From a virus (Duplodnaviria > Heunggongvirae > Uroviricota > Caudoviricetes), in IMG/VR virus record IMGVR_UViG_2671180984_000014: DNA of 64,000 nucleotides; one strand, given 5' to 3'. This document shows, in pieces, positions 18,733 to 42,266 of the stretch (within the stretch, counting starts at the first letter, position 1; each line of letters opens with the position of its first letter). The notes under the pieces are model-generated. The model was not told where the DNA came from, made no database searches, and saw nothing but the letters and a program-made list of their open reading frames with translations. Both the position numbers and the translations under genes were made by a program.

Positions 18733-20322
18733 TTACTTAATAAGCAGCGGTACGCCCTGGATACGACGGGCTACGCCAGTCGGGCAGCAGGCCCAGACTA
18801 CTTCCCATTTATCGAATTCCGCCTGCGTAACTTTCAGCACATACGGTTCTGTACCGTCAGCATCAGGATCACGAGGAGCCACCAGAGCGCCGGAGGCGAC
18901 AAAGCGATCTAAAAGTTTGGTCATCCCTTTAGTCAGGCCAGCCGCAGTAATACCGTCCGGGCTATGCTTCATCTGTCGGGCTAACTGGACAAAGAAACGG
19001 CTGATTGCATTCATCAGGGATGGGACGTGCTGGAAGTGCAGATAGTTATCCTGCGTGCAGCAAGTTAAAGCATCGTCGATGATCATCTGGCCAGAGGTGC
19101 CAACAGATACTTTATTGAGACGGCCCTTGACCATTGCTTCTTCGTCCGGGGTATCTTCCGGATACAGCGGTTGAATTGACGCACGAGCAATGACGGCACG
19201 TTCTTCACCAGCCGGTGAGTAATGCCAACCGCCGACATCAGAGTTTTTCTTGACGCCACGAGCTTTCGCCGCATACGCCACGCCAGACAGACCAAAGACC
19301 ACACGGGATTGGGTCCATTTGTCTTTGCAGGAGAACGGGTAGTGATAGACAGCACAGCTTACATAATCGGTACCAAGTAAACCGGTATCTTCAACAGCAG
19401 AGAGCGCTTCCGTATACGTCAATGTCGGTTTGACATCAAAGAAGCCATCAATCAGGCGATCAGAACAGATATTACCTAACGCGGTGATCGCCGCATTGTC
19501 ATAGCAACCCAGGCCGAGAACAGCGGTGTACATGTACGGCGCATTGTTCAGCACCTTAACCGCACGCAGGTACGCAGCGGTTGAGATTTTCGACTGATCA
19601 CCGTTGGTACCACCAGTGAACGCCAGCGATTTTTTATTTGTTACTTTCGCCGTCGAAATCAGCTCTTCATTAACAACCGCGCGCAGATATTTAGAACGGG
19701 CTTCCAGAGCCGTAGGCAGATAACACAAGCGGCCCATGTCATCTTTCGCTTCTTCCGCCAAAGACACAGTGTGTGTCTCCAGGGTCGTTACCACGCCGAG
19801 CGAAGTCGTCTGGGTCAGTTTTAAGAGGAAGCGTTCATTACCCGCGCTGTCCGCTGTTGCCGTTTCGATGGTTAACTCACGGGTAGGTGAAATACACGGA
19901 TCACCATCATCAACGTAGATAGCAAAGGCTTCGCCACTATCAAGTTCAATTTCAGAACCGTATGGCAACGCACTGTAAGCCGGTTCGCCTGATTCATCGA
20001 ACATAATAATCGGGAACTTCGCATCATCCGGAACAGCACGAACAACATAACCTGACGTTTGCTGAATAGCTTCGTATACATGGCGAATTGGTTCGAACTG
20101 TGAGCCGGAAGACGGCTTCAGCGGTTCGCCGAGAACATCTTTGTAATTGGACTCAGTAACCGCAAGAACAGTAAACGGCTTGCCACGCGCAAATACGCCA
20201 ATACCAGCCCACAAGCTGCTATTTAATGCAACACCGGTAGATAACGTCGCATCGGCATTGATCGGGCTAACCGCGACGCCGGATGCATTACCTAATGACT
20301 GTTGAATTGAATATTGAGACAT
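18733..20322 (-). CDS. putative contractile tail sheath protein (529 aa)
   Basis: Size and position next to the capsid gene; assignment by synteny (P1 gene 22 position). Confidence 0.4.
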   Translation of the reverse strand: MSQYSIQQSLGNASGVAVSPINADATLSTGVALNSSLWAGIGVFARGKPFTVLAVTESNYKDVLGEPLKPSSGSQFEPIRHVYEAIQQTSGYVVRAVPDDAKFPIIMFDESGEPAYSALPYGSEIELDSGEAFAIYVDDGDPCISPTRELTIETATADSAGNERFLLKLTQTTSLGVVTTLETHTVSLAEEAKDDMGRLCYLPTALEARSKYLRAVVNEELISTAKVTNKKSLAFTGGTNGDQSKISTAAYLRAVKVLNNAPYMYTAVLGLGCYDNAAITALGNICSDRLIDGFFDVKPTLTYTEALSAVEDTGLLGTDYVSCAVYHYPFSCKDKWTQSRVVFGLSGVAYAAKARGVKKNSDVGGWHYSPAGEERAVIARASIQPLYPEDTPDEEAMVKGRLNKVSVGTSGQMIIDDALTCCTQDNYLHFQHVPSLMNAISRFFVQLARQMKHSPDGITAAGLTKGMTKLLDRFVASGALVAPRDPDADGTEPYVLKVTQAEFDKWEVVWACCPTGVARRIQGVPLLIK

Positions 20323-20382
20323 AACTTTCCCTGTTATGCGCCCCGCACGGGGGCGCTATGTTAAACGGAGAACTTCCCCTGA

Positions 20383-22089
20383 TTACTCAGAGTCACCGGC
20401 ATCAATCGTGTCGCCGCTTATGAAGTTAAGCCCGCCTTTTTTGGCCATTGTCAGCGTTACACGAGTGAAGTAATCAGCGCCGTTGCGTGGGTGCATATCG
20501 TTGATAGCCGAACCCCACAGTGTGGTACGGTTGACCAGCGCCGGAGTGGTCGGATGCTGGAACGGGATAGCCGGGACAGCATCACCAGTCACGAAGCCTG
20601 CTTTACCCGGATTTTCATCACGGACGTAGCACAGCACATCCATCGAGCTGAACTGAATGTTCTCTGTCGTTAAGTTCTTACAAATACCAGCAGGTACTTC
20701 GTACACTTTCACGTTACCGAACAGGGTACCGATGTAGTGAACATACGGAGTCTGGATATAGTCTTCGGCTGGCTGGAAGAAATCCTTCGGCAACTGTTTG
20801 AAGAAAGATGCTGCATCAGCACCAGCAAACATCCCCATCGCACCAGAAGATTTAACGCGCTCAATAATGTCGCGATATACAGTCTGGAATTTGCCACGAA
20901 TGATGGTTGCCCATACATTAAAGGACTGGTTAACCGGCAGAGCGATGTCAAAGGTGTCGGTCGCAAGAGTACGCCAGATCATGATGCGAAGACGCAGCAT
21001 ATCCTGTTCATGAGACAGGTATTCCTTCAGGGTGCGGAACTGTAGGGAACCCAGGTCCAGACCAAATTCACGCTGTGCTTCATACGCCGCCTGTACCGTG
21101 TGCTCAGCCGCGATAACGAACTGACTTGGGAACAGGGTGTATTTCTTCATTTCGTGGTTGATCAGCGGGATCAGCTCAGGTGCGGCTTCAATATTGATTT
21201 CCGTCTCAATTGCGATCTCAGTGCCTTTATCCGGCGCTTTGGAGAACGACAGGGCAATCTGACCAATGTTGTAGTTCAGAGAGCAGGTAACAGTGATTTG
21301 CTCACCAGCAGCATTAGTAAACGAGTGAAGTAGGCTGCCGGAACCGTTATCAACAACAGACTTAATACGGTTAACGTAGATGTTAGTGCGACCTTTTCGG
21401 ATTGGTACATTCTGGCCTTCGAAGTCTTCCATCTTGAAGGTTGCGGTTTTGCTGGTGCCATCGGAGCTTGCCACCAGCACATAGCGGCGACGTAACTGGC
21501 TGTACACACCAACGGATTGCATGTCCAGAACATCACCAGCAGCATAAGAACCAAAAGAGGAACCTGCCACGTTAAAGACTTCATAGATGTCGGACTGGTC
21601 ACGCGTAACCGGAATGAAGGTACACGCATCAGCGGTAGCTGCCCCCAACTGAACAGGCAGGATCATCGCGAGGAATAAAGGCAGACGCATAACACCGTCA
21701 GAAACGCTCATCATCTCTGCTGCGACGGATTCCAGCATCGCTTTATTAGTGGCATCCATGCTATTGCGGGTGGACTCAATCAGGCAGTTTTCCAGCGTCT
21801 GGTGGCAGGAGGCCAGAATTTCCGGACGCGGCATAGATTTATGTGCTGCGGCGTAGTCAGCCAGTGCACTTGCCCACGCTGTAGCGATTTGAGCGGTGGC
21901 ATTATCAGAGATACCCGCAAAAACCGGGTCTTTACGTGCAGCTTCAAGGATAGATGCGGCACGCGCGGCATCATCTTTAATGAATTGGTTATCAGTACCG
22001 AACTGCGCAGTGCTTGCCCAGCCAAGCACAGCTTTAGAGCGTTTTGCGATATCTGCAATACGATTCTGGTATTCGCGTAAGTTACTCAA
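20383..22089 (-). CDS. putative major capsid protein precursor
   Basis: Helical N-terminal region then a large beta-rich body; no ATG near the 5' end; preferred start is TTG at 22089 behind SD AAGGAAG (track start at 22110 is also TTG). Confidence 0.4.
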   Translation of the reverse strand: MSNLREYQNRIADIAKRSKAVLGWASTAQFGTDNQFIKDDAARAASILEAARKDPVFAGISDNATAQIATAWASALADYAAAHKSMPRPEILASCHQTLENCLIESTRNSMDATNKAMLESVAAEMMSVSDGVMRLPLFLAMILPVQLGAATADACTFIPVTRDQSDIYEVFNVAGSSFGSYAAGDVLDMQSVGVYSQLRRRYVLVASSDGTSKTATFKMEDFEGQNVPIRKGRTNIYVNRIKSVVDNGSGSLLHSFTNAAGEQITVTCSLNYNIGQIALSFSKAPDKGTEIAIETEINIEAAPELIPLINHEMKKYTLFPSQFVIAAEHTVQAAYEAQREFGLDLGSLQFRTLKEYLSHEQDMLRLRIMIWRTLATDTFDIALPVNQSFNVWATIIRGKFQTVYRDIIERVKSSGAMGMFAGADAASFFKQLPKDFFQPAEDYIQTPYVHYIGTLFGNVKVYEVPAGICKNLTTENIQFSSMDVLCYVRDENPGKAGFVTGDAVPAIPFQHPTTPALVNRTTLWGSAINDMHPRNGADYFTRVTLTMAKKGGLNFISGDTIDAGDSE

Positions 22090-22104
22090 TTTACTCTTCC
22101 TTAA

Positions 22105-22169
22105 ACACAAGGCACTTGTGTGAATCCCTTTTCGGAAGAGATTTTATTGAAAGTCACTTGTTGACTTTC
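22105..22169 (-). promoter_or_regulatory. putative late promoter/leader: two perfect inverted repeats
   Basis: ACACAAGGCACTTGTGT (22105-22121) and GAAAGTCACTTGTTGACTTTC (22149-22169); the latter shares its core with 11065-11077, 43911-43925 and 60824-60839. Confidence 0.35.
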
Positions 22170-22225
22170 TCGTGACAAGCAATTTTTTTATTTTTTCGGG
22201 AGTAGGGGAGGAAGGTAAAATCCAA

Positions 22226-22313
22226 GGTGAAATCGTGGCGATTTCACCTTGAAATTTTAGATGGATTTACTTTAAAAACAGTAGGTTAATAGTGAAATTT
22301 GAATGGCGAAAGT
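22226..22313. promoter_or_regulatory. parS: parS partition site (centromere)
   Basis: Immediately after parB stop; reverse complement reads AAACTTTCGCCATTCAAATTTCACTATTAACC...TTTCAAGGTGAAATCGCCACGATTTCACC with ATTTCAC and TCGCCA motifs around an AT-rich core, as in P1 parS. Confidence 0.8.
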
Positions 22314-23315
22314 TTAAGGCTTCGGCTTTTTATCGAGGCTCTTTCTAAGGATATGCCCAATCATCCTGTCGAGTTCTTCCTGTAGCTCTTTTGAAAGTCG
22401 ATTAAACTCATAAGAAAATGCACGGCCTTTCACGCGCTTCCTTGCAAAGCGATCCTTGTCCTCAAATTTCCATAATTCAGTAACTACGGACTTATCTTTA
22501 GAACCTTTATCCGTGAGTAGTGAGGCTTCCTTTGTTATCAAGCGCAGGATTTTATTTTTAACTTCATCTTCGGCCATTTCTTCAATGGATAAGATGTCGT
22601 TTATTTCCGGGGATATGTTTTGAATAAGCTGATCAAACTCTAAATTCTTGTTCCCCATTTCGTCGCCAACAGCACAAAGCGTTTTGTAGTCCGAAAAGGT
22701 TAATTCCGACTGCACAGGGAAAAGGGCGACTAATTCTTCCGGAGCACTCGCTGCCTGGAGAGCACGCGTGACCTTCGCCTGAGACAGCCCTTCTTTGGCT
22801 GCAATATCCTTCTGACTCATCCCATCATTTTTCATTCGCATCAAACGCAGACCTATTTCTCGAATGCTGTGCTGCAATGCTGTCTGAACGTCTTTCGCTA
22901 AATTTTGCGCTTCCTGAACGCTGATCTCCTGGTCCGTGACTAAAACCCGCAACCCTACGTTCTCTAAGATGGCAGAAGCTCGACGCCGGGAACCATCCAA
23001 AATTTCAATTTTCCCTGTAGCCCGTCTAACACCTATTGCAGGGTAAAATTGCTGATGCTTAATAGTGCTTCGGATACTTTTTAATGATTTTGGCGTAAGA
23101 GATGCCTGGTCACGCCCGTTGTTATGCTGATCAACAAAGGTATCGCTTTCTACCTGGTTCGGAGGTATTACCTCTTCAATAAATGTGGCCTGGCGACCAG
23201 TTGATAACTTGAATACCTGCTCGACTCGATCGCCAGAGGCTGAAGAACTATCAAATCCGCTTAATATTGAAGGATTAAGGGTTCGCCCAATTGTTGGTCT
23301 GTTTTTCTTTGACAT
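22314..23315 (-). CDS. parB: ParB partition protein (333 aa)
   Basis: ParB-type HTH region (MSQKDIAAKEGLSQAKVTRAL); follows parA; followed by parS. Confidence 0.85.
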   Translation of the reverse strand: MSKKNRPTIGRTLNPSILSGFDSSSASGDRVEQVFKLSTGRQATFIEEVIPPNQVESDTFVDQHNNGRDQASLTPKSLKSIRSTIKHQQFYPAIGVRRATGKIEILDGSRRRASAILENVGLRVLVTDQEISVQEAQNLAKDVQTALQHSIREIGLRLMRMKNDGMSQKDIAAKEGLSQAKVTRALQAASAPEELVALFPVQSELTFSDYKTLCAVGDEMGNKNLEFDQLIQNISPEINDILSIEEMAEDEVKNKILRLITKEASLLTDKGSKDKSVVTELWKFEDKDRFARKRVKGRAFSYEFNRLSKELQEELDRMIGHILRKSLDKKPKP

Positions 23316-23331
23316 GGGGGTTTCTTACTCC

Positions 23332-24528
23332 TCAGTTAGATCTGATAAATTCAATACGGTCAAAAACTGCTTTAGCAAAATCTTCCGCGGCAATTCGCGC
23401 GTTCTTCAATGCATCAGCACTACCAACATACGTTGCAGGGTTAGCTGAAATAACAGTGTCAAAAGACTCGCCGCAGCGTTCAAAACCGTCAAGGCGAGGG
23501 AGGACGACATCAAGCATATCCCCACCGAACACTTCTTTAGCCAGGCTATGGCAATACTTATGGTCTGCCTTGTTACTCAACTTGGACATAAAACCAATGT
23601 TAGTCGCAAGCTGGCACTCGCAGCCTTCATCCGAAATGAGTTTCACCAACTCAGGAAGGCGGGCAACGTATTTAAGCGATGAGTGGAAATCAACCGTTGC
23701 AGGCGGCAGAGGTGTAAACAGTATATTGGCCGAGGCCAAAGCATTTTTCAGGAAGGCGTCAAGGTGAGGACCACTATCAACGAGGATAAAGTCATAATCG
23801 CTCTTCAGCTTATCAATCACATTTTCTTTCAGGACAGCATGGATGTTCTGACCCGGTAGATGCTCATTGCACAGCTCTCTCCAATCGGATGCAATAAAGG
23901 CATCGTCAATCGACGCAGGCATAACGTCAACCCCAGGTACAACAGAAGGAACAATAAACTCCTCTAACAGCTCTTCACGGCTTACATTCTGCAACATAGC
24001 CTGTGCAGATGTTGCGTTTACGATACCAATAGAGTGTTTATGGCTTAAAAACATCGTTGCTGAAGATTGCGGATCAAGGTCAATAACCAGAATCCTTAAA
24101 TCTTCCATCAGAAGATGAGGGTGAGCACGCATTGCATGCGCCAGAGAAACCGTCGATACAGTTTTTGACACACCGCCTTTAAGATTGGAGATGAAAATCA
24201 CATACGCTTCGCTGTAGCGATCCCGGTATTTTGGCACTCCGCGATGTTCATATATGTCAATGATGTTCTGAATTGACATCGCATATTTCATTGAAGAGCC
24301 AGCAGGGCGTTTATCGAAAACATAACCCTTTTCTTCCATTTCACTTACGGCATAGTCAACGTTCGCTCGAGTCAGTAGAGGCAATTTTGCCAGTGCCGCT
24401 TTCGCATAGACCTGGTAAAACTCGTTCGCGTGTAGCTCATCCTTTTGCAACTGTACTTGTTCAGTCAGAACATTGAGCATTCTGTTTGCTCTTTGAGCAA
24501 CCTTGTGAAGCTGGCTGGAATCACTCAT
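23332..24528 (-). CDS. parA: ParA partition ATPase, type Ia (398 aa)
   Basis: Deviant Walker A NLKGGVSKTVSTVSLA, Walker B-like LVIDLDPQ, ~100-aa N-terminal extension. Confidence 0.85.
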   Translation of the reverse strand: MSDSSQLHKVAQRANRMLNVLTEQVQLQKDELHANEFYQVYAKAALAKLPLLTRANVDYAVSEMEEKGYVFDKRPAGSSMKYAMSIQNIIDIYEHRGVPKYRDRYSEAYVIFISNLKGGVSKTVSTVSLAHAMRAHPHLLMEDLRILVIDLDPQSSATMFLSHKHSIGIVNATSAQAMLQNVSREELLEEFIVPSVVPGVDVMPASIDDAFIASDWRELCNEHLPGQNIHAVLKENVIDKLKSDYDFILVDSGPHLDAFLKNALASANILFTPLPPATVDFHSSLKYVARLPELVKLISDEGCECQLATNIGFMSKLSNKADHKYCHSLAKEVFGGDMLDVVLPRLDGFERCGESFDTVISANPATYVGSADALKNARIAAEDFAKAVFDRIEFIRSN

Positions 24529-24665
24529 CGAAAGTCATCCTTTATGCTGTATTTTTGAATTTAATTAAAAATGCTGCATAAAATAATAATGTATGCGTAG
24601 ATGCTTGTACATGGCATTCTCTGCATGTTTTGTTCATTTTGCACGATTGAGAGTTACAAGAAAGG

Positions 24666-24689
24666 CACAAAAAAGCCCCGTTCAGGGGC
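24666..24689 (-). terminator. rho-independent terminator closing the two-gene cassette
   Basis: Minus-strand hairpin GCCCCTGAACGGGGC followed by TTTTTT. Confidence 0.6.
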
Positions 24690-24696
24690 ATCAGTG

Positions 24697-25101
24697 TTAT
24701 TTGCTAAGAGCAGCGAATAATCGTTCGAAATCGATAGTATCTATAGCACGCGTAAGCGCCGGAAGTTCAGCCTCAAAGTACCCGTGTCGATCGTAAAAGA
24801 AGGGACCGAAGAGCGAGGCATGTTGGATTCTACTTCGCCCCAGCCCGGACACACAGTTAAGCCCATTACCGGCTAAAAGGCTAAAAAACTTCTCTGGATT
24901 ATCGTGGTAAAGCTGAGAATCAATGGTGGCGGTTAACTCTTCCATAGGGAAGCACACCCGCCCTGTCTCCCAGGGATATTTAGTCCGAAGCATAAACATT
25001 GCTTTCAGCAATTCACATTGAGCGCGGATCGCGTCCGGTTCATAGCCAGATATGGAGACATAAGCCACGTCCCTCATTCCTGCGTCATCTTTGAAAGTCA
25101 C
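24697..25101 (-). CDS. hypothetical protein (134 aa) of the incA-par cassette
   Basis: ORF with no recognisable motif. Confidence 0.4.
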   Translation of the reverse strand: MTFKDDAGMRDVAYVSISGYEPDAIRAQCELLKAMFMLRTKYPWETGRVCFPMEELTATIDSQLYHDNPEKFFSLLAGNGLNCVSGLGRSRIQHASLFGPFFYDRHGYFEAELPALTRAIDTIDFERLFAALSK

Positions 25102-25170
25102 GATAGAAGTAACATCCAGTTCTTTTTCGAAAGAGCGAGCAGCATCTACTGGACGCTGAAGTAAATCATT

Positions 25171-25506
25171 CTACTTAATGCGCTCGAGAATCCCTCCCCA
25201 CATATCATTTAGATATTCGATATGAGCCAAAACCTTATCAAGACACTCTCGTGTAAACCATTCAGTATGCCCGCCACCGGCGCTTTTCTCCCACGGCGCA
25301 TTCCAGGGGAAAAAGGTTGCGTGTAAAGCCCGCTCAAGATTAACCATTGCCAAACGCGTACCACGATAGACCCGTGAAAGCGCAAAATCGGGACTCACTT
25401 GTAGCCCTTTAAACCGTGCCAATGGACCACATGAAATGCCGATTTTAAAAGTATCTCCGTTCTCCGGCACCAGAACGTAGAGGTAGTGTTGTTTCTCTTC
25501 TTGCAT
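25171..25506 (-). CDS. T5orf172 / GIY-YIG-like domain protein (111 aa)
   Basis: YLYVLVPENGDTFKIGIS ... GGHTEWF resembles the T5orf172 signature. Confidence 0.45.
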   Translation of the reverse strand: MQEEKQHYLYVLVPENGDTFKIGISCGPLARFKGLQVSPDFALSRVYRGTRLAMVNLERALHATFFPWNAPWEKSAGGGHTEWFTRECLDKVLAHIEYLNDMWGGILERIK

Positions 25507-25540
25507 ATCAATACCACTGCTTGATGAGAACCGCGCAAAT

Positions 25541-25767
25541 GTTGACTATGCGCGATGTGACTACAGTCAAAAGTTGACTGTAGTCGATTTAACTCCACCA
25601 AAGATCGACTATGTAAGATATTGTCGGGAGAAACGTTGACTATACGCGATGAAATGACCCTAAAAGCCATCTCAATAGCGACTTGCAGAATATTGACGCC
25701 AGCAAAAATCCACCAGCGTCAACGAATGTCGCCTATAGTCAACTTCTCGCTATCGCATATAGTCAAT
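25541..25767. repeat. incA-like iteron cluster downstream of repA
   Basis: At least seven copies of the core (A)TCGCGYATAGTCAAC in both orientations. Confidence 0.65.
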
Positions 25768-25768
25768 A

Positions 25769-26710
25769 TTATGGATTGCGCTTATGGATCTGAAAGCCGA
25801 TTTTCCTGCCGTTTTTTATCTCTGAAAATTTAAGATATTCAATAGCTTCCAAATCTTTCATGGCTTTTCTGATAACGCTATTTTGCACGCTAACGGATGA
25901 TTTGAGATTAAGCCTTGCTCTAAGGCGCTCAATGCTGACAGGTGCCGGGTTGGCGGGTAGAGCCTCAAAGAATGTATACAGTACCTTGGCCGTCTCTTTG
26001 CGCCCGAGCTTATCCAGCATCTTCAGCTTCAGGATTCGCTTATAGTCAACATAGTAAAGTTCAGATAGCTGTTTCTGCGGCTGGATCTCGATAACATCAA
26101 GCTCGGTATTCAGGCTGCTATATGCCAACAAGTTGACGTTAATGTTATTGAGATGACCTTTTGCCGCCGGGAAGCGGAATTTGACAACTGTCTGCTGAAT
26201 GCGTGTCAGAGAGTCATCAATACTTTTACGGAACGCCTTTGAAAGGCGCTTACGTGGATAGCCGCATCGATCGGCAAACTCGGAGAATGGCAGGGTGATT
26301 ATGCCGTCATCATCAGGTGCGTAGTCAAACAACGCGGAGGTTATGCCCACCCACACCTTAAAATCAGTATCCATATCCAGGCGTGGACCATGAATTTCAA
26401 TTCCCTCATAGCCTTCCTGCTCAACAATTTTGAGGCTTGATAGTTCTTCGGTTGCGTTCGTTGTGTTTGTAGTAACTGACGATCCGCGACGTAGTGCCAC
26501 ATTGGTAGATTTTAAGGTTGGCACAAACACACCTAAGCGCAACAAAGCAATGGGTTGTATAGTGCTATTGTTATTGGGTTTCAGGCTGTGGATTTCTCCT
26601 GTATTTCCTGCAACTTCTTCAACGCTAAGGAAGCCTTTATTTTCTTCCAGCATCGTGGTTTCTCCATATGTGGCGCGGCCTGGCGTCATCTGGATTGCAG
26701 TTATCAACAA
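25769..26710 (-). CDS. repA: iteron-binding replication initiator RepA
   Basis: Rep-family initiator (LRLGVFVP, GPRLDMDTDFKVWVGI) flanked by iterons; start may be an internal Met. Confidence 0.8.
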   Translation of the reverse strand: MLITAIQMTPGRATYGETTMLEENKGFLSVEEVAGNTGEIHSLKPNNNSTIQPIALLRLGVFVPTLKSTNVALRRGSSVTTNTTNATEELSSLKIVEQEGYEGIEIHGPRLDMDTDFKVWVGITSALFDYAPDDDGIITLPFSEFADRCGYPRKRLSKAFRKSIDDSLTRIQQTVVKFRFPAAKGHLNNINVNLLAYSSLNTELDVIEIQPQKQLSELYYVDYKRILKLKMLDKLGRKETAKVLYTFFEALPANPAPVSIERLRARLNLKSSVSVQNSVIRKAMKDLEAIEYLKFSEIKNGRKIGFQIHKRNP

Positions 26711-26730
26711 CTGTGAATAGTCAGGCTCTA

Positions 26731-26834
26731 AAATCGCGTACAGTCAATGTTTCTGTCGCATATAGTCAACAATAAATCGCGTGCAGTCAACAATAAATCG
26801 TGCACAGTCAACATAAAATCGCGTATAGTCAATG
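26731..26834. repeat. origin iterons (incC-like), five ~21-bp direct repeats
   Basis: AAATCGCGTRYAGTCAACAAT x5; DnaA-box-like TTATCAACA at 26701-26709. Confidence 0.7.
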
Positions 26835-26986
26835 TTGATCCCATTTCAGGCCAGAAATGGCGCGGCTTACAGCGATCCGGGATCTTCTTTGGATCTTCCT
26901 GGGTTCTCTTTAGGATCTGTTTATTGGATCTATGCTGTGGATAAGTTGAATAAACCGGCCAACATAGCCGGTTGGAAGGAAGGGTA

Positions 26987-27379
26987 TTATTCTACGCTTT
27001 CGATAAGAAGACCATGTTCATAACATTTAAGCTCATCGCCTTCGTACAGGAATTGGTATCCAATACCACCATTTTCATGGACATTAGGGAATAACTCATA
27101 ACTCACTGAAGAGCAAATCACACCAATGCAGCGATCAACGCCTTCTCGTTCTTCAGTGCTGAAAAAATCCTCTTCGGTAAGAACATGAGTACATTGCTCA
27201 TCAGCATAGGTCGGAAATACATGCTCGATGCAATCCGGGTGTTTTAAACCAAGCTGATCGGCAAGCTCGAAAGCATGACGGTATTGTTCAGATCCTGGCT
27301 TGCCAACAGTGATGTGCTCAATTTTGTAAATTGAAGTCGCTTTGTTGATAGTTTGCTTTACTGTTACTTTATCAGACAT
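26987..27379 (-). CDS. hypothetical protein (130 aa)
   Basis: ORF. Confidence 0.35.
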   Translation of the reverse strand: MSDKVTVKQTINKATSIYKIEHITVGKPGSEQYRHAFELADQLGLKHPDCIEHVFPTYADEQCTHVLTEEDFFSTEEREGVDRCIGVICSSVSYELFPNVHENGGIGYQFLYEGDELKCYEHGLLIESVE

Positions 27380-27390
27380 AAAAATCCCTT

Positions 27391-27642
27391 TTAGTTACCG
27401 CTGATAGCGCGGTTGTAATCATTAACGTTGCGATTCTTCCTGTTAATCCCCATCAGCATCGTTTCTGTATCGAGGATATACGCTGGCAGATCATCAAAAT
27501 ATTCACTGCTAAACTCTGGCATCCTGCACATAAACGCACTTTTGGGGGCAGGGTGGTTAACCTTTGTCGGCGTCGGCGTTAAATTCGCTGATCGACTCCC
27601 GGAGCAACCGCTGAGTGTCAGCAGGAATGCGCTGGCGAACAT
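27391..27642 (-). CDS. outer-membrane lipoprotein, o-spanin (Rz1)-like
   Basis: Lipobox LTLSGC, Pro-rich mature part (TPTPTKVNHPAPK); start overlaps 3' end of 27557-28006 in another frame. Confidence 0.45.
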   Translation of the reverse strand: MFASAFLLTLSGCSGSRSANLTPTPTKVNHPAPKSAFMCRMPEFSSEYFDDLPAYILDTETMLMGINRKNRNVNDYNRAISGN

Positions 27643-28006
27643 TACCCGCCGCAACCAGTTGTTTCTGAACTTCAGCTTTTCGTTCCATTTGCCTGTCAGC
27701 ATATTTGGCTTGTTCTGATTCATTTTTCACTTCCTGGCTGTGAAAATGTTGCTCTGCTTTGTTCATCGTCTCAATGGTCTGGTTAAGATCCATTATTGAC
27801 TTATCACGTTCCTTAACAGCCTGATCAAGACTGCCAATTTTCTCCATGGCTTGCTTTAGCTGATGACGTTCCCATGCAAACCCAGCACCAACAAGTGCGC
27901 AAATCAGAACAAGAACACCAGTAGCAGCAAGTTTCTCCTTCAAAGACAAAGCTGTTTTTAACGTAGAAAAGAATGACATGTCTTCCTCCTGAAGAAAAAT
28001 TATCAA
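27557..28006 (-). CDS. i-spanin (Rz)-like: N-terminal TM helix plus coiled coil
   Basis: TM segment ATGVLVLICALVGAGFAW then charged coiled-coil region. Confidence 0.4.
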   Translation of the reverse strand: MIIFLQEEDMSFFSTLKTALSLKEKLAATGVLVLICALVGAGFAWERHQLKQAMEKIGSLDQAVKERDKSIMDLNQTIETMNKAEQHFHSQEVKNESEQAKYADRQMERKAEVQKQLVAAGNVRQRIPADTQRLLRESISEFNADADKG

Positions 28007-28018
28007 TGAAGTCCTTTG

Positions 28019-28807
28019 TTACCGTGCCGCTTTGTTTAATTCATCAAGAACAGAATCAGGAACCAAAGCGGCGACTGCGCTGGCTGTGCTGGCCTTATTT
28101 GCTGATGCTTCCGCAAGCGCGGTACCGATAGCATGGTTATAAGCAGTTATGGCTACGTTGGCGCTTTCATTCGCTCGTTCATACTGCTGTTGTAACGCAG
28201 TTGTGGGTGCTGTTGTCTGGTTGAAAACAACCCCAAACTGTTCAGTTGCTACTTTCAGAGATTCAATTTGCTCTTCTGTTAGTGCTGGTGGGGGAGTGGC
28301 AGTGCCGCCGCCTGAACCAGAGCCTGACGAGCTTTCTGAGCCAGTGTTAAGGGCCTGGTTAATCTCCCCCATTGCAGCGACTAAACTTGATGTATTAAGC
28401 GCGTTAACAGCGTCCTCAAGCGATTTAGTAATATTCACATCACCAATGGCAATAGAGATCGGCAGTTCTGAAACTTCTCGCTCATTAGCACGGCAGTAAA
28501 CATCCCAACCAATATCGAGTTGAAGCAGCATTGACAGATCTGCATAACCAGCCAACAGGTCCGCGTGCTTAGTTGCCAGTTCTCCAATGTTCGTTAAGCC
28601 GGTTGTGGTTGTTCTGATCGTTGAAACATAGCTGGTAATAGTGTCGGGATAGACAATTGTATCCAGAATTAATCCGGTCAATTCTTCTGCAAGCAGTTTT
28701 GCTGTGTTAGCACTGTTTCGTGCCGATGTTATGGCACCAGGTGTTTTCATCCCACCGGCGGCGGCCAATTTTTTATATGCGGATAACTGGTAGTCTTTTT
28801 CCAACAT
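28019..28807 (-). CDS. hypothetical protein (~262 aa)
   Basis: Track ORF 28019-28864 trimmed to internal Met (MLEKDYQ...) to avoid overlap with upstream gene. Confidence 0.3.
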   Translation of the reverse strand: MLEKDYQLSAYKKLAAAGGMKTPGAITSARNSANTAKLLAEELTGLILDTIVYPDTITSYVSTIRTTTTGLTNIGELATKHADLLAGYADLSMLLQLDIGWDVYCRANEREVSELPISIAIGDVNITKSLEDAVNALNTSSLVAAMGEINQALNTGSESSSGSGSGGGTATPPPALTEEQIESLKVATEQFGVVFNQTTAPTTALQQQYERANESANVAITAYNHAIGTALAEASANKASTASAVAALVPDSVLDELNKAAR

Positions 28808-28815
28808 GATATCTC

Positions 28816-29100
28816 CTAACTTACCTGAACCAGGCCGTCTCCGGACGCTACGGTAGATCCGCATGAAACAGGGTCACCAACGCATACGATCCCTTTACCA
28901 TTGACGGTAAACCATGCCCTGGTTGATATAGCTTGCCCACCGTGCGTACTGTTTCCATCGGTATGCTGTGCATATTGCTTACCATCAACTAACACTTCGA
29001 CTCCGTTGACTTTAAGTAGTGGTTCACTCTCTACAGGAGGCCTGGATGGGAATCCTCCGTGCCCCGAACAAATGCTGTCTTTTGTTGCAATGCTTGCCAC
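28816..29100 (-). CDS. PAAR-like small spike-tip protein (94 aa)
   Basis: Motifs SGHGG, THGG and VCVGDPVSCGS typical of PAAR-repeat proteins. Confidence 0.4.
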   Translation of the reverse strand: MASIATKDSICSGHGGFPSRPPVESEPLLKVNGVEVLVDGKQYAQHTDGNSTHGGQAISTRAWFTVNGKGIVCVGDPVSCGSTVASGDGLVQVS

Positions 29101-29181
29101 GCCATCACCAATTATTTGCTCTGATTTTCGTTATTTTAACTTAGGTTATTTGTGGTCTGTATGGCGTTTACTTATCGCAAA

Positions 29182-29198
29182 ATTGCTCTAATAAATAT
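29182..29198 (+). promoter_or_regulatory. C1-type operator (ATTGCTCTAATAAATAT) in divergent promoter region
   Basis: 15/17 match; precedes the hrdC-dmt operon. Confidence 0.65.
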
Positions 29199-29269
29199 TG
29201 TTTTTTATGTCGTATTTTCGGTACCATTCAGCCATCGCCCTTCAATGGGCATTTGTTTGGAGTCGTCAG

Positions 29270-29554
29270 ATGCAGATGGAGCTAATAAGCCGCAAAGAGT
29301 TCGATAGCCGTGTAACCAGCGGTGAACTCGACAACTTGCAGGCTATCAAGGTGAAAGAAGGCTTTTGCCTCATTGGGAATCAGAGCGGAATAAATCGCGT
29401 TTTTATGCTTCGCCGTACGGATTTGAAGCCATTTGTCTGGAAGAACGAAATTGGTCCCAGCTCATACGCTCAAACGAGGGGGTGCCACAACCTGGCCTTT
29501 TTCTACAAAGACGAGCTTTCTGTGGTTGATATTCAAGGGTTACAACATGTTTAA
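29270..29554 (+). CDS. small protein upstream of the rdgC homolog (~94 aa)
   Basis: Internal Met of track ORF 29198-29554; start uncertain. Confidence 0.3.

Positions 29555-39120: not shown

Positions 39121-42266
<3,146 letters not shown>

Follow-up and report, generated by a model that had tools for sequence, protein, structure and literature searches.

I-TevI and the Seg proteins of T4 are about 250 amino acids (aa) long, with a linker joining an N-terminal catalytic domain of GIY-YIG type to a C-terminal domain that binds DNA; proteins of this class are free-standing between essential genes and promote the co-conversion of flanking markers. T5orf172 proteins act as homing endonuclease genes in ICP1, T5-like and Vibrio phages, where they are found beside essential genes and at the edges of exchanged segments (PMC10448857). 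In the ICP1 protein Odn (Gp88), a T5orf172 domain is fused to an initiator-derived DNA-binding domain, and the enzyme cuts the origin of a rival at its iterons (PMC8263062). Here we describe a gene for a putative nuclease of the T5orf172 family in a stretch of 64,000 nucleotides (nt), hereafter the window, taken from the IMG/VR virus record IMGVR_UViG_2671180984_000014 (Caudoviricetes), a P1-like phage-plasmid with 99.8% identity to pO111_2 across the region in question. Judged by alignment with related elements, this gene comes last in the 'p0111' replicon cassette and is interrupted in the window by an amber codon, and its product may be a nuclease directed against rival P1-like replicons.

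P1-like phage-plasmids are common carriers of resistance genes. Their two replicon types, IncY and p0111, switch often, so far without explanation, and a single tree of 193 Salmonella elements was inferred to contain 17 IncY/p0111 changes (PMC11165635). In JL22, 'repA (p0111) and unknown gene gp57' have been reported as replacing repA (IncY) (PMC9603915). The literature already describes the replicon swap and an unnamed extra gene, and the protein is labelled a GIY-YIG nuclease in databases. What appears to be new, within the literature searched, is that the split open reading frames (ORFs) of pO111_2-type elements represent a single gene with a nonsense mutation, together with the position of this gene as a boundary element of the cassette, its evolutionary profile and its reading as an Odn-like protein.

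An earlier note on this DNA had described a two-gene cassette, and two ORFs of 111 and 134 aa (ORF111 and ORF134) are in fact found between the iterons downstream of repA and the par operon; they are not two genes, being one frame split by a TAG codon. The translation of positions 24694-25506 (minus strand; all coordinates are positions in the window) gives one frame with codon 112 as its sole internal stop. Against phrog_2876, a profile of 269 positions, ORF111 aligns to 1-111 and ORF134 to 136-269, and a single 810-bp gene annotated as "GIY-YIG nuclease family protein" is present in RCS47 (intact orthologue YP_009624912), in pRHB41-C23_2 and in most other relatives. In a four-way alignment, codon 112 (alignment column 390) is TAG in the window and in pO111_2, and TCG (Ser) in the others. 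The frequency of the amber allele was determined by exact match of a 57-nt probe centred on the mutated base, the non-matching remainder differing by one base: the allele is carried by 12 of 400 plasmids and by 28 of 411 Escherichia coli genomes. Ser112, and hence one 269-aa protein, is found in about 95% of the relatives, and the amber alleles constitute one clade whose members are 0-2 nt apart (44 IMG/VR loci). Furthermore, the Shine-Dalgarno sequence of ORF134, read by eye, is unconvincing. By these alignments, ORF111 and ORF134 are the halves of one 269-aa gene that has undergone a Ser112-to-amber change in this lineage, and the nuclease gene of the window is, as far as its reading frame tells, a pseudogene. 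Its function is most likely lost here, because only the 111-aa nuclease domain, devoid of the targeting domain, could be made. The inserted two-gene module that was first described is for the most part an artefact produced by a point mutation, and from a practical perspective the 'two-gene cassette' of the window is better annotated as a pseudogene.

The N-terminal part of the protein was expected to be T5orf172/GIY-YIG-like, and profile searches bear this out. ORF111 matches the Pfam family T5orf172 (PF10544, GIY-YIG clan) over residues 8-86 with E=6e-7 and 30.3 bits, the cut-off being 20, and phrog_681 'endonuclease' with E=6.7e-10. Weak tblastn matches were also obtained with 'endonuclease' genes of Vibrio, Salmonella and Klebsiella phages (31-38% identity). 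In an alignment of five T5orf172 domains, namely those of this protein, of its only diverged relative (P0004, see below) and of three phage 'endonucleases', the residues Y8, Y10, K21, G23, P28, R31, E58, H62, G79 and E82 are invariant, with E82 lying within the motif TEWF. They map to the GIY and YIG strands and include the counterparts of the catalytic Arg and Glu of ICP1 Odn (for their roles see PMC8263062). By profile and alignment, the N-terminal domain is a member of the T5orf172 family within the GIY-YIG superfamily with all motif residues intact, and the full-length protein is a putative DNA-cutting enzyme whose catalysis is predicted from domain identity.

The genomic context of the gene was compared with that of canonical P1, where, in agreement with the earlier note, the interval of about 190 bp between incA and Ppar is only non-coding DNA. 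On the minus strand, which carries all the locus features of interest, the order in the window is origin iterons, repA, second iteron array, ORF111, ORF134, hairpin with T-run, Ppar, parA and parB (Table 1). The second array lies between the repA stop codon and the start of ORF111, and the description of incA-like iterons downstream of repA proved accurate. The suggestion of an accessory module inserted at this point did not survive the comparison: blastn against P1 gives matches for 19001-24630 (99.0% identity) and for 26850-29349 (94.7%) and none in between, homology being absent across 24631-26849, so that it is the whole replicon that has been exchanged. According to the breakpoint alignments, P1 homology ends at 24627-24630, about 16 bp upstream of the -35 box of Ppar, and restarts at about 26850, just beyond the outermost origin iteron, so that oriR keeps its P1-type DnaA box and GATC repeats. 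The 2.2-kb cassette stands in for P1 61316-62806, a segment of 1491 bp comprising incA, repA and the incC iterons, and consists of the origin iterons, repA ('p0111'), the control iterons, the nuclease gene and a terminator. A simple insertion into P1 is ruled out by the blastn comparison and the breakpoint alignments, with repA and all iterons being non-P1. Since repA and the iterons are as foreign to P1 as the nuclease gene itself, and homology is interrupted from 24627-24630 to about 26850, the gene, separated from the left IncY/p0111 breakpoint by about 70 bp, is by these alignments the terminal part of the swapped cassette. This cassette substitutes for the IncY incC-repA-incA block in roughly half of the P1-like phage-plasmids.

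The two replicons follow the same general plan, with five iterons at the origin and a control iteron array downstream of the initiator gene; the part of oriR with the DnaA box and the GATC sites is common to both, as are the flanking upfA and Ppar-parAB. They differ in the sequences of initiator and iterons, which are unrelated, and in that P1 itself has neither a gene nor a terminator between incA and Ppar. The p0111 RepA gives profile matches to Rep3_C (E=5e-6) and Rep3_N (E=2.8e-4) in Pfam and to phrog_775 (E=4e-134); its identity to other plasmid Rep proteins, including those of RepFIB type, does not exceed 49%, and its gene is unrelated to P1 repA save for one weak match of 59 nt. The rho-independent terminator that had been noticed as closing the unit is a genuine GC hairpin followed by a T-run. 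The hairpin is located 8 nt past the stop codon of ORF134 (-11.9 kcal/mol, z=-2.1), and 48 bp separate the terminator from the onset of P1 homology on the Ppar side. The terminator is kept in pO111_2, RCS47 and pRHB41-C23_2, and in the diverged contig L005, described below, the same place is held by a different hairpin. An Rfam search of the region gave no non-coding RNA matches at E up to 1.

Table 1. Features of the p0111 replicon cassette and of its flanks (positions in the 64,000-nt window).
Feature	Positions	Strand	Remarks
ORF111	25171-25506	-	111 aa
ORF134	24697-25101	-	134 aa
Full-length gene for T5orf172-family putative endonuclease	24697..25506	-	269 codons, 810 bp including stop; pseudogene here
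Amber codon TAG (codon 112)	25171..25173	-	single C-to-A change on the coding strand; TCG (Ser112) to TAG
N-terminal T5orf172 (GIY-YIG superfamily) nuclease domain, residues 1-111	25174..25506	-	PF10544, phrog_681
Linker and C-terminal domain, residues 113-269	24700..25170	-	sequence orphan; model resembles WH1 of iteron-plasmid initiators
Intrinsic terminator	24669..24689 (hairpin 24675-24689)	-	GCCCC-TGAAC-GGGGC, then T6
Control iteron array, analogue of incA	25542..25766	both strands	core TTGACTATACGCGAT; five clear copies
repA, 'p0111' type, Rep3/RepFIB-like initiator	25769..26653	-	294 aa from ATG
Five direct origin iterons, analogue of P1 incC	26733..26832	-	21-22 bp spacing
Host-factor part of oriR, common to P1, outside the swapped cassette	26850..26960	-	DnaA box and five GATC sites
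Swapped replicon cassette, about 2.2 kb	24628..26849	.	blastn against P1 and breakpoint alignments
Ppar, parA-parB promoter, P1-type, unchanged	24583..24611	-	
parA	23332-24528	-	
parB	22314-23315	-	

The nuclease gene is closely linked to this type of replicon. In PLSDB, about 395 plasmids carry this RepA (at least 95% identity) and about 400 carry the nuclease gene, with a co-occurrence of nearly 1:1, and the gene is absent from the four other RepFIB-like replicons inspected. It was found in 411 of 5,426 complete E. coli genomes, and when one genome per species was scanned for 185,579 species, a single Escherichia contig came up. Among 5.8 billion proteins, searched twice, only near-identical copies and one relative, P0004, with 44% identity, were found; its source, L005, is a diverged P1-like contig (about 72% nucleotide identity) in which the gene occupies the same position and the order repA, nuclease gene, parA is kept. 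For the C-terminal 157 residues, a phmmer search of 1.84 billion representatives returned no further relative, and sequence searches of the PDB with both halves gave nothing. L005 is a Logan contig of 95.7 kb (ERR2144811), and the gene call of P0004 (311 aa) apparently begins 41 codons early, the extension (L005 8001-8123) being a translation of iteron repeats (…AYSQHKHFSFAYSQH…); the conserved ATG of P0004 aligns with the gene start in the window.

The evolutionary behaviour of the gene differs from that of its neighbours. From the segregating sites of 41-45 loci, the same set being used across genes, a pN/pS of 0.33 was obtained for the nuclease gene, alike in both halves, compared with 0.15 for upfA, 0.07 for parB, 0.02 for repA and 0.01 for parA. 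Among 44 loci, three independent nonsense alleles and one insertion of the IS200/IS605 type were found. Besides amber-112, stops occur at codon 68 (L043) and at codon 228 (L024, which is SJ46, IMGVR_UViG_2974549561_000001), both unrelated to the amber-112 clade, and the insertion is placed after about codon 100 of the gene (L046, IMGVR_UViG_2645727563_000002; L046 4300-6000). About 18% of the sampled copies are broken and about 82% intact, the intact fraction reaching about 95% in the plasmid and genome collections. In the comparison of the window with L005, identity is 89% for ParA, 83% for RepA, 80% for gp23, 67% for ParB, 60% for the nuclease domain and 32% for the C-terminal domain, and both lineages have kept the iteron core. 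By these measures the nuclease gene is constrained yet dispensable, and no segment of the neighbourhood evolves faster than its putative targeting domain. The pN/pS, the repeated inactivation and the fast C-terminal domain make up the pattern expected of a selfish or arms-race gene. As a side observation, the two ORFs of the L046 insert (389 and 141 aa) are TnpB-like and TnpA-like, as judged from sequence alone.

The 134-aa ORF had been noted as lacking a known family, and this remains so: no match was found in Pfam, NCBIfam or PADLOC. The AF2 model of the full-length protein is poor (pLDDT 52), and only the model of the C-terminal half was used in fold searches; modelled alone, this half gave a best of five AF2 models with pLDDT 73 and pTM 0.75. 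The predicted architecture comprises a nuclease domain (residues 1-105), a linker of low confidence and the C-terminal domain, the gene being followed by its own terminator. In three fold searches of the C-terminal model, Rep3-type initiators came out on top of each with weak matches: Foldseek against the PDB placed RepE54, WH1 domains, Pi and RctB first (E of at least 0.3, TM 0.3-0.4), and against BFVD the best match was a COG5527 plasmid-replication-initiation protein (E=0.2). A "Rep-WH1-like winged helix" is for this domain a consistent but weak structural lead.

A nuclease directed against a rival is favoured on account of the nuclease family, the two-domain design, the position at the edge of the cassette, the weak constraint accompanied by decay, and the possible initiator-like domain. 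Reasoning by analogy with the described systems, we tentatively prefer a nuclease, homing or origin-directed, that would attack a rival P1-like replicon and is inactivated in this window, and we give this reading somewhat less than an even chance; what it says beyond domain identity and genomic position we infer. The protein would cut DNA in a sequence-directed manner, as free-standing homing or 'origin-directed' endonucleases do, with target recognition supplied by the C-terminal domain, a predicted winged helix similar to Rep WH1. The target would be the DNA of a rival P1-like element devoid of the cassette; the element's own iterons are unlikely to be that target, since RepA (83%) and the iterons are conserved between the two lineages but the C-terminal domain is only 32% identical. 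The cut rival would be either eliminated or repaired from flanking homology, which comprises the par operon on one side and, on the other, upfA and the DnaA/GATC part of oriR; such repair would copy the cassette in. The nuclease gene is probably co-transcribed with repA, because neither a recognisable sigma-70-like promoter nor a terminator was found in the interval between the two genes (consensus scan; the promoter was also sought by eye), and the terminator downstream would shield Ppar from read-through. In a more specific and rather unlikely version of this proposal, the protein would be an initiator-mimicking nuclease within a replicon: a P1-type competitor would be reached at its origin or control iterons by way of the Rep-WH1-like domain, or at its RepA through heterodimerisation, and repair of the break would drive IncY-to-p0111 switching.

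The likeness to ICP1 Odn lies in the T5orf172 domain with its catalytic Arg and Glu kept, in a second domain related, or in the present case weakly similar in predicted structure, to the DNA-binding domain of a replication initiator, and in being phage-encoded in a setting of conflict between related replicons (PMC8263062). Unlike in Odn, the nuclease is N-terminal, the domain order being reversed. Moreover, the binding domain of Odn is 42% identical to PLE RepA_N (PMC8263062), whereas the present protein has no detectable sequence similarity to Rep and gives only a weak fold match to Rep3-type WH1; and Odn is encoded outside any replicon, while the present gene adjoins its own repA and iterons. 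With the free-standing T5orf172 homing genes (PMC10448857) it shares the nuclease family, the combination of a nuclease with a separate, here putative, targeting region, the proximity to essential genes, the position at the edge of an exchanged segment and frequent decay. In those genes, however, CapR, DUF723 or DUF4397 zinc-finger repeats are usually N-terminal to the nuclease, whereas here a non-zinc orphan domain is C-terminal to it, and a nuclease-free version of the present locus was not found. As regards I-TevI and the Seg proteins, the size and the succession of N-terminal catalytic domain, linker and C-terminal domain are alike, DNA binding being only predicted here; the subfamily, T5orf172, is different, and there is no sequence similarity to their DNA-binding domains.

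Several observations weigh against a rival-directed nuclease. The nuclease gene always came together with the complete cassette. No cassette-bearing element simply lacking it was found, and the classic presence/absence signature of homing is missing as a consequence; linkage decay around any non-homologous cassette could look no different. The IncY and p0111 types occur at about equal frequency, which gives no pointer to a strong drive, and the roughly 18% of broken copies mean that the gene is dispensable. As for the recognition domain, the WH1-like fold comes from one AF2 model built on effectively two sequences, the other four models having a pLDDT of 53-59. When compared with the RepA of the window and with P1 RepA, the C-terminal domain gave only E>2 in BLASTP, and against a seven-member Rep alignment the hhalign probability was below 1%.

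The same evidence bears on other explanations. Replication control had been among the roles first proposed, and a domesticated accessory of replication or copy number, which would bind its own iterons or pair with RepA and act as a regulator or nickase for the p0111 replicon, would account for a gene that directly follows the control iterons and is probably transcribed with repA, for the 1:1 linkage to this repA type, the diverged L005 lineage included, and for the resemblance of the C-terminal model to Rep WH1, the dimerisation and iteron-binding domain; there is a precedent, too, in domesticated T5orf172 relatives, such as the PLE repressor CapR (PMC10448857). A partner of RepA or of the iterons, however, should be as conserved as they are, and the C-terminal domain is not. 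Moreover, the three nonsense alleles, the insertion and the gap in pN/pS between the gene and repA indicate that the replicon works without it, and the fully kept catalytic residues would be needless in a pure binder. This is not the best-supported reading, and we regard it as improbable. The decay that argues against an accessory role would suit a functionless remnant, an old homing or cargo gene hitch-hiking with the p0111 cassette: inactivation has occurred repeatedly and independently, constraint is far weaker than on the neighbours, and the family is tiny, with two lineages among all the proteins searched. Nevertheless, pN/pS is still below 1 in both halves, most copies remain intact over 269 codons, and the ORF with all its motif residues persists at 44% identity in L005; a mere remnant seems to us a minority explanation with a low probability.

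Anti-phage defence or anti-defence, the gene being cargo that came to lie by chance in a plasmid-maintenance region, had also been proposed. Defence systems often contain nuclease domains, and the cargo of P1-like elements is variable, but PADLOC gave no match for either half at E up to 0.1 and NCBIfam none, the gene is single and small without a sensor or partner, and it lies outside the movable cargo regions, fixed to one replicon type and one position. Such a role found no support and is very unlikely. Least probable by far, to the point of being practically discarded, are two separate genes forming a toxin-antitoxin pair or a two-component cassette inserted at the P1 incA-par junction. This reading can point to the two ORFs being annotated in the window and in pO111_2-like plasmids, and to a weak, sub-threshold match to Tox-URI2 (E=0.059). 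It is contradicted by the shared frame with a single TAG that is TCG elsewhere, by the split allele being a recent minority clade, by the lack of a convincing ribosome-binding site for the downstream ORF and by a swap that covers the whole replicon and not only this segment. The toxin-antitoxin role suggested earlier is thus excluded, as there is one gene interrupted by an amber codon, with one ORF in about 95% of relatives and a split that is one nonsense mutation in one clade; the candidate was rejected on the shared frame, the alignment and the allele counts.

In the context of the frequent replicon switch of P1-like elements, a nuclease gene fixed at the edge of one replicon cassette is an obvious candidate for driving or policing it, and the idea is directly testable, as intact, amber and IS-disrupted alleles exist naturally. 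If the initiator-mimicking version of the proposal were confirmed, with a break that either destroys the rival or is mended from the par and oriR flanks common to both, this would be the first 'homing replicon', and no Odn-like weapon would have been described before it outside the ICP1/PLE system. Should the protein instead bind RepA or the iterons of its own element, it would count as a new accessory factor for a replicon of the iteron type.

As regards the other parts of the cassette, the repA open frame reaches a TTG at 26710 (313 aa), whereas the RefSeq and phage records begin at the ATG at 26653 (294 aa), from which the diverged RepA of L005 likewise aligns. The control iterons are on the plus strand at 25542, 25574 and 25636 and on the minus strand at 25728 and 25752. 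The window is devoid of one 30-bp iteron unit (TCGCGCATAGTCAACTATTCACATTAACTT) that is present in pO111_2 and RCS47, the site being 25558/25559 (minus-strand array 25537-25590); it was apparently lost by recombination between direct repeats, and the spacer from the repA stop codon to the ATG is 262 bp here compared with 292 bp in the other members of the amber clade. The short form was matched contiguously in about 19 of 396 plasmids, so that the number of control iterons is polymorphic. An iteron-like 15-mer (TTGACTATAAGCGAA), with two mismatches to the core, is located inside the repA coding sequence at 26035-26049 (minus strand).

The part of oriR shared with P1 contains the DnaA box TTATCCACA at 26936-26944 and its five GATC sites at 26874-26927. 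The IncY/p0111 swap, which exchanges the initiator and all iterons and spares this host-factor half of the P1 oriR, is a neat example of a modular origin. The naming of the replicon is in conflict among sources: it is IncHI1B according to MOB-suite (PLSDB NC_013370, CP055600), RepFIB in RAST-style records and p0111 in the literature. Finally, in the phage record OR339795.1 (phi456), a feature at 40456-40788 that overlaps the nuclease gene is labelled 'terminase small subunit'.

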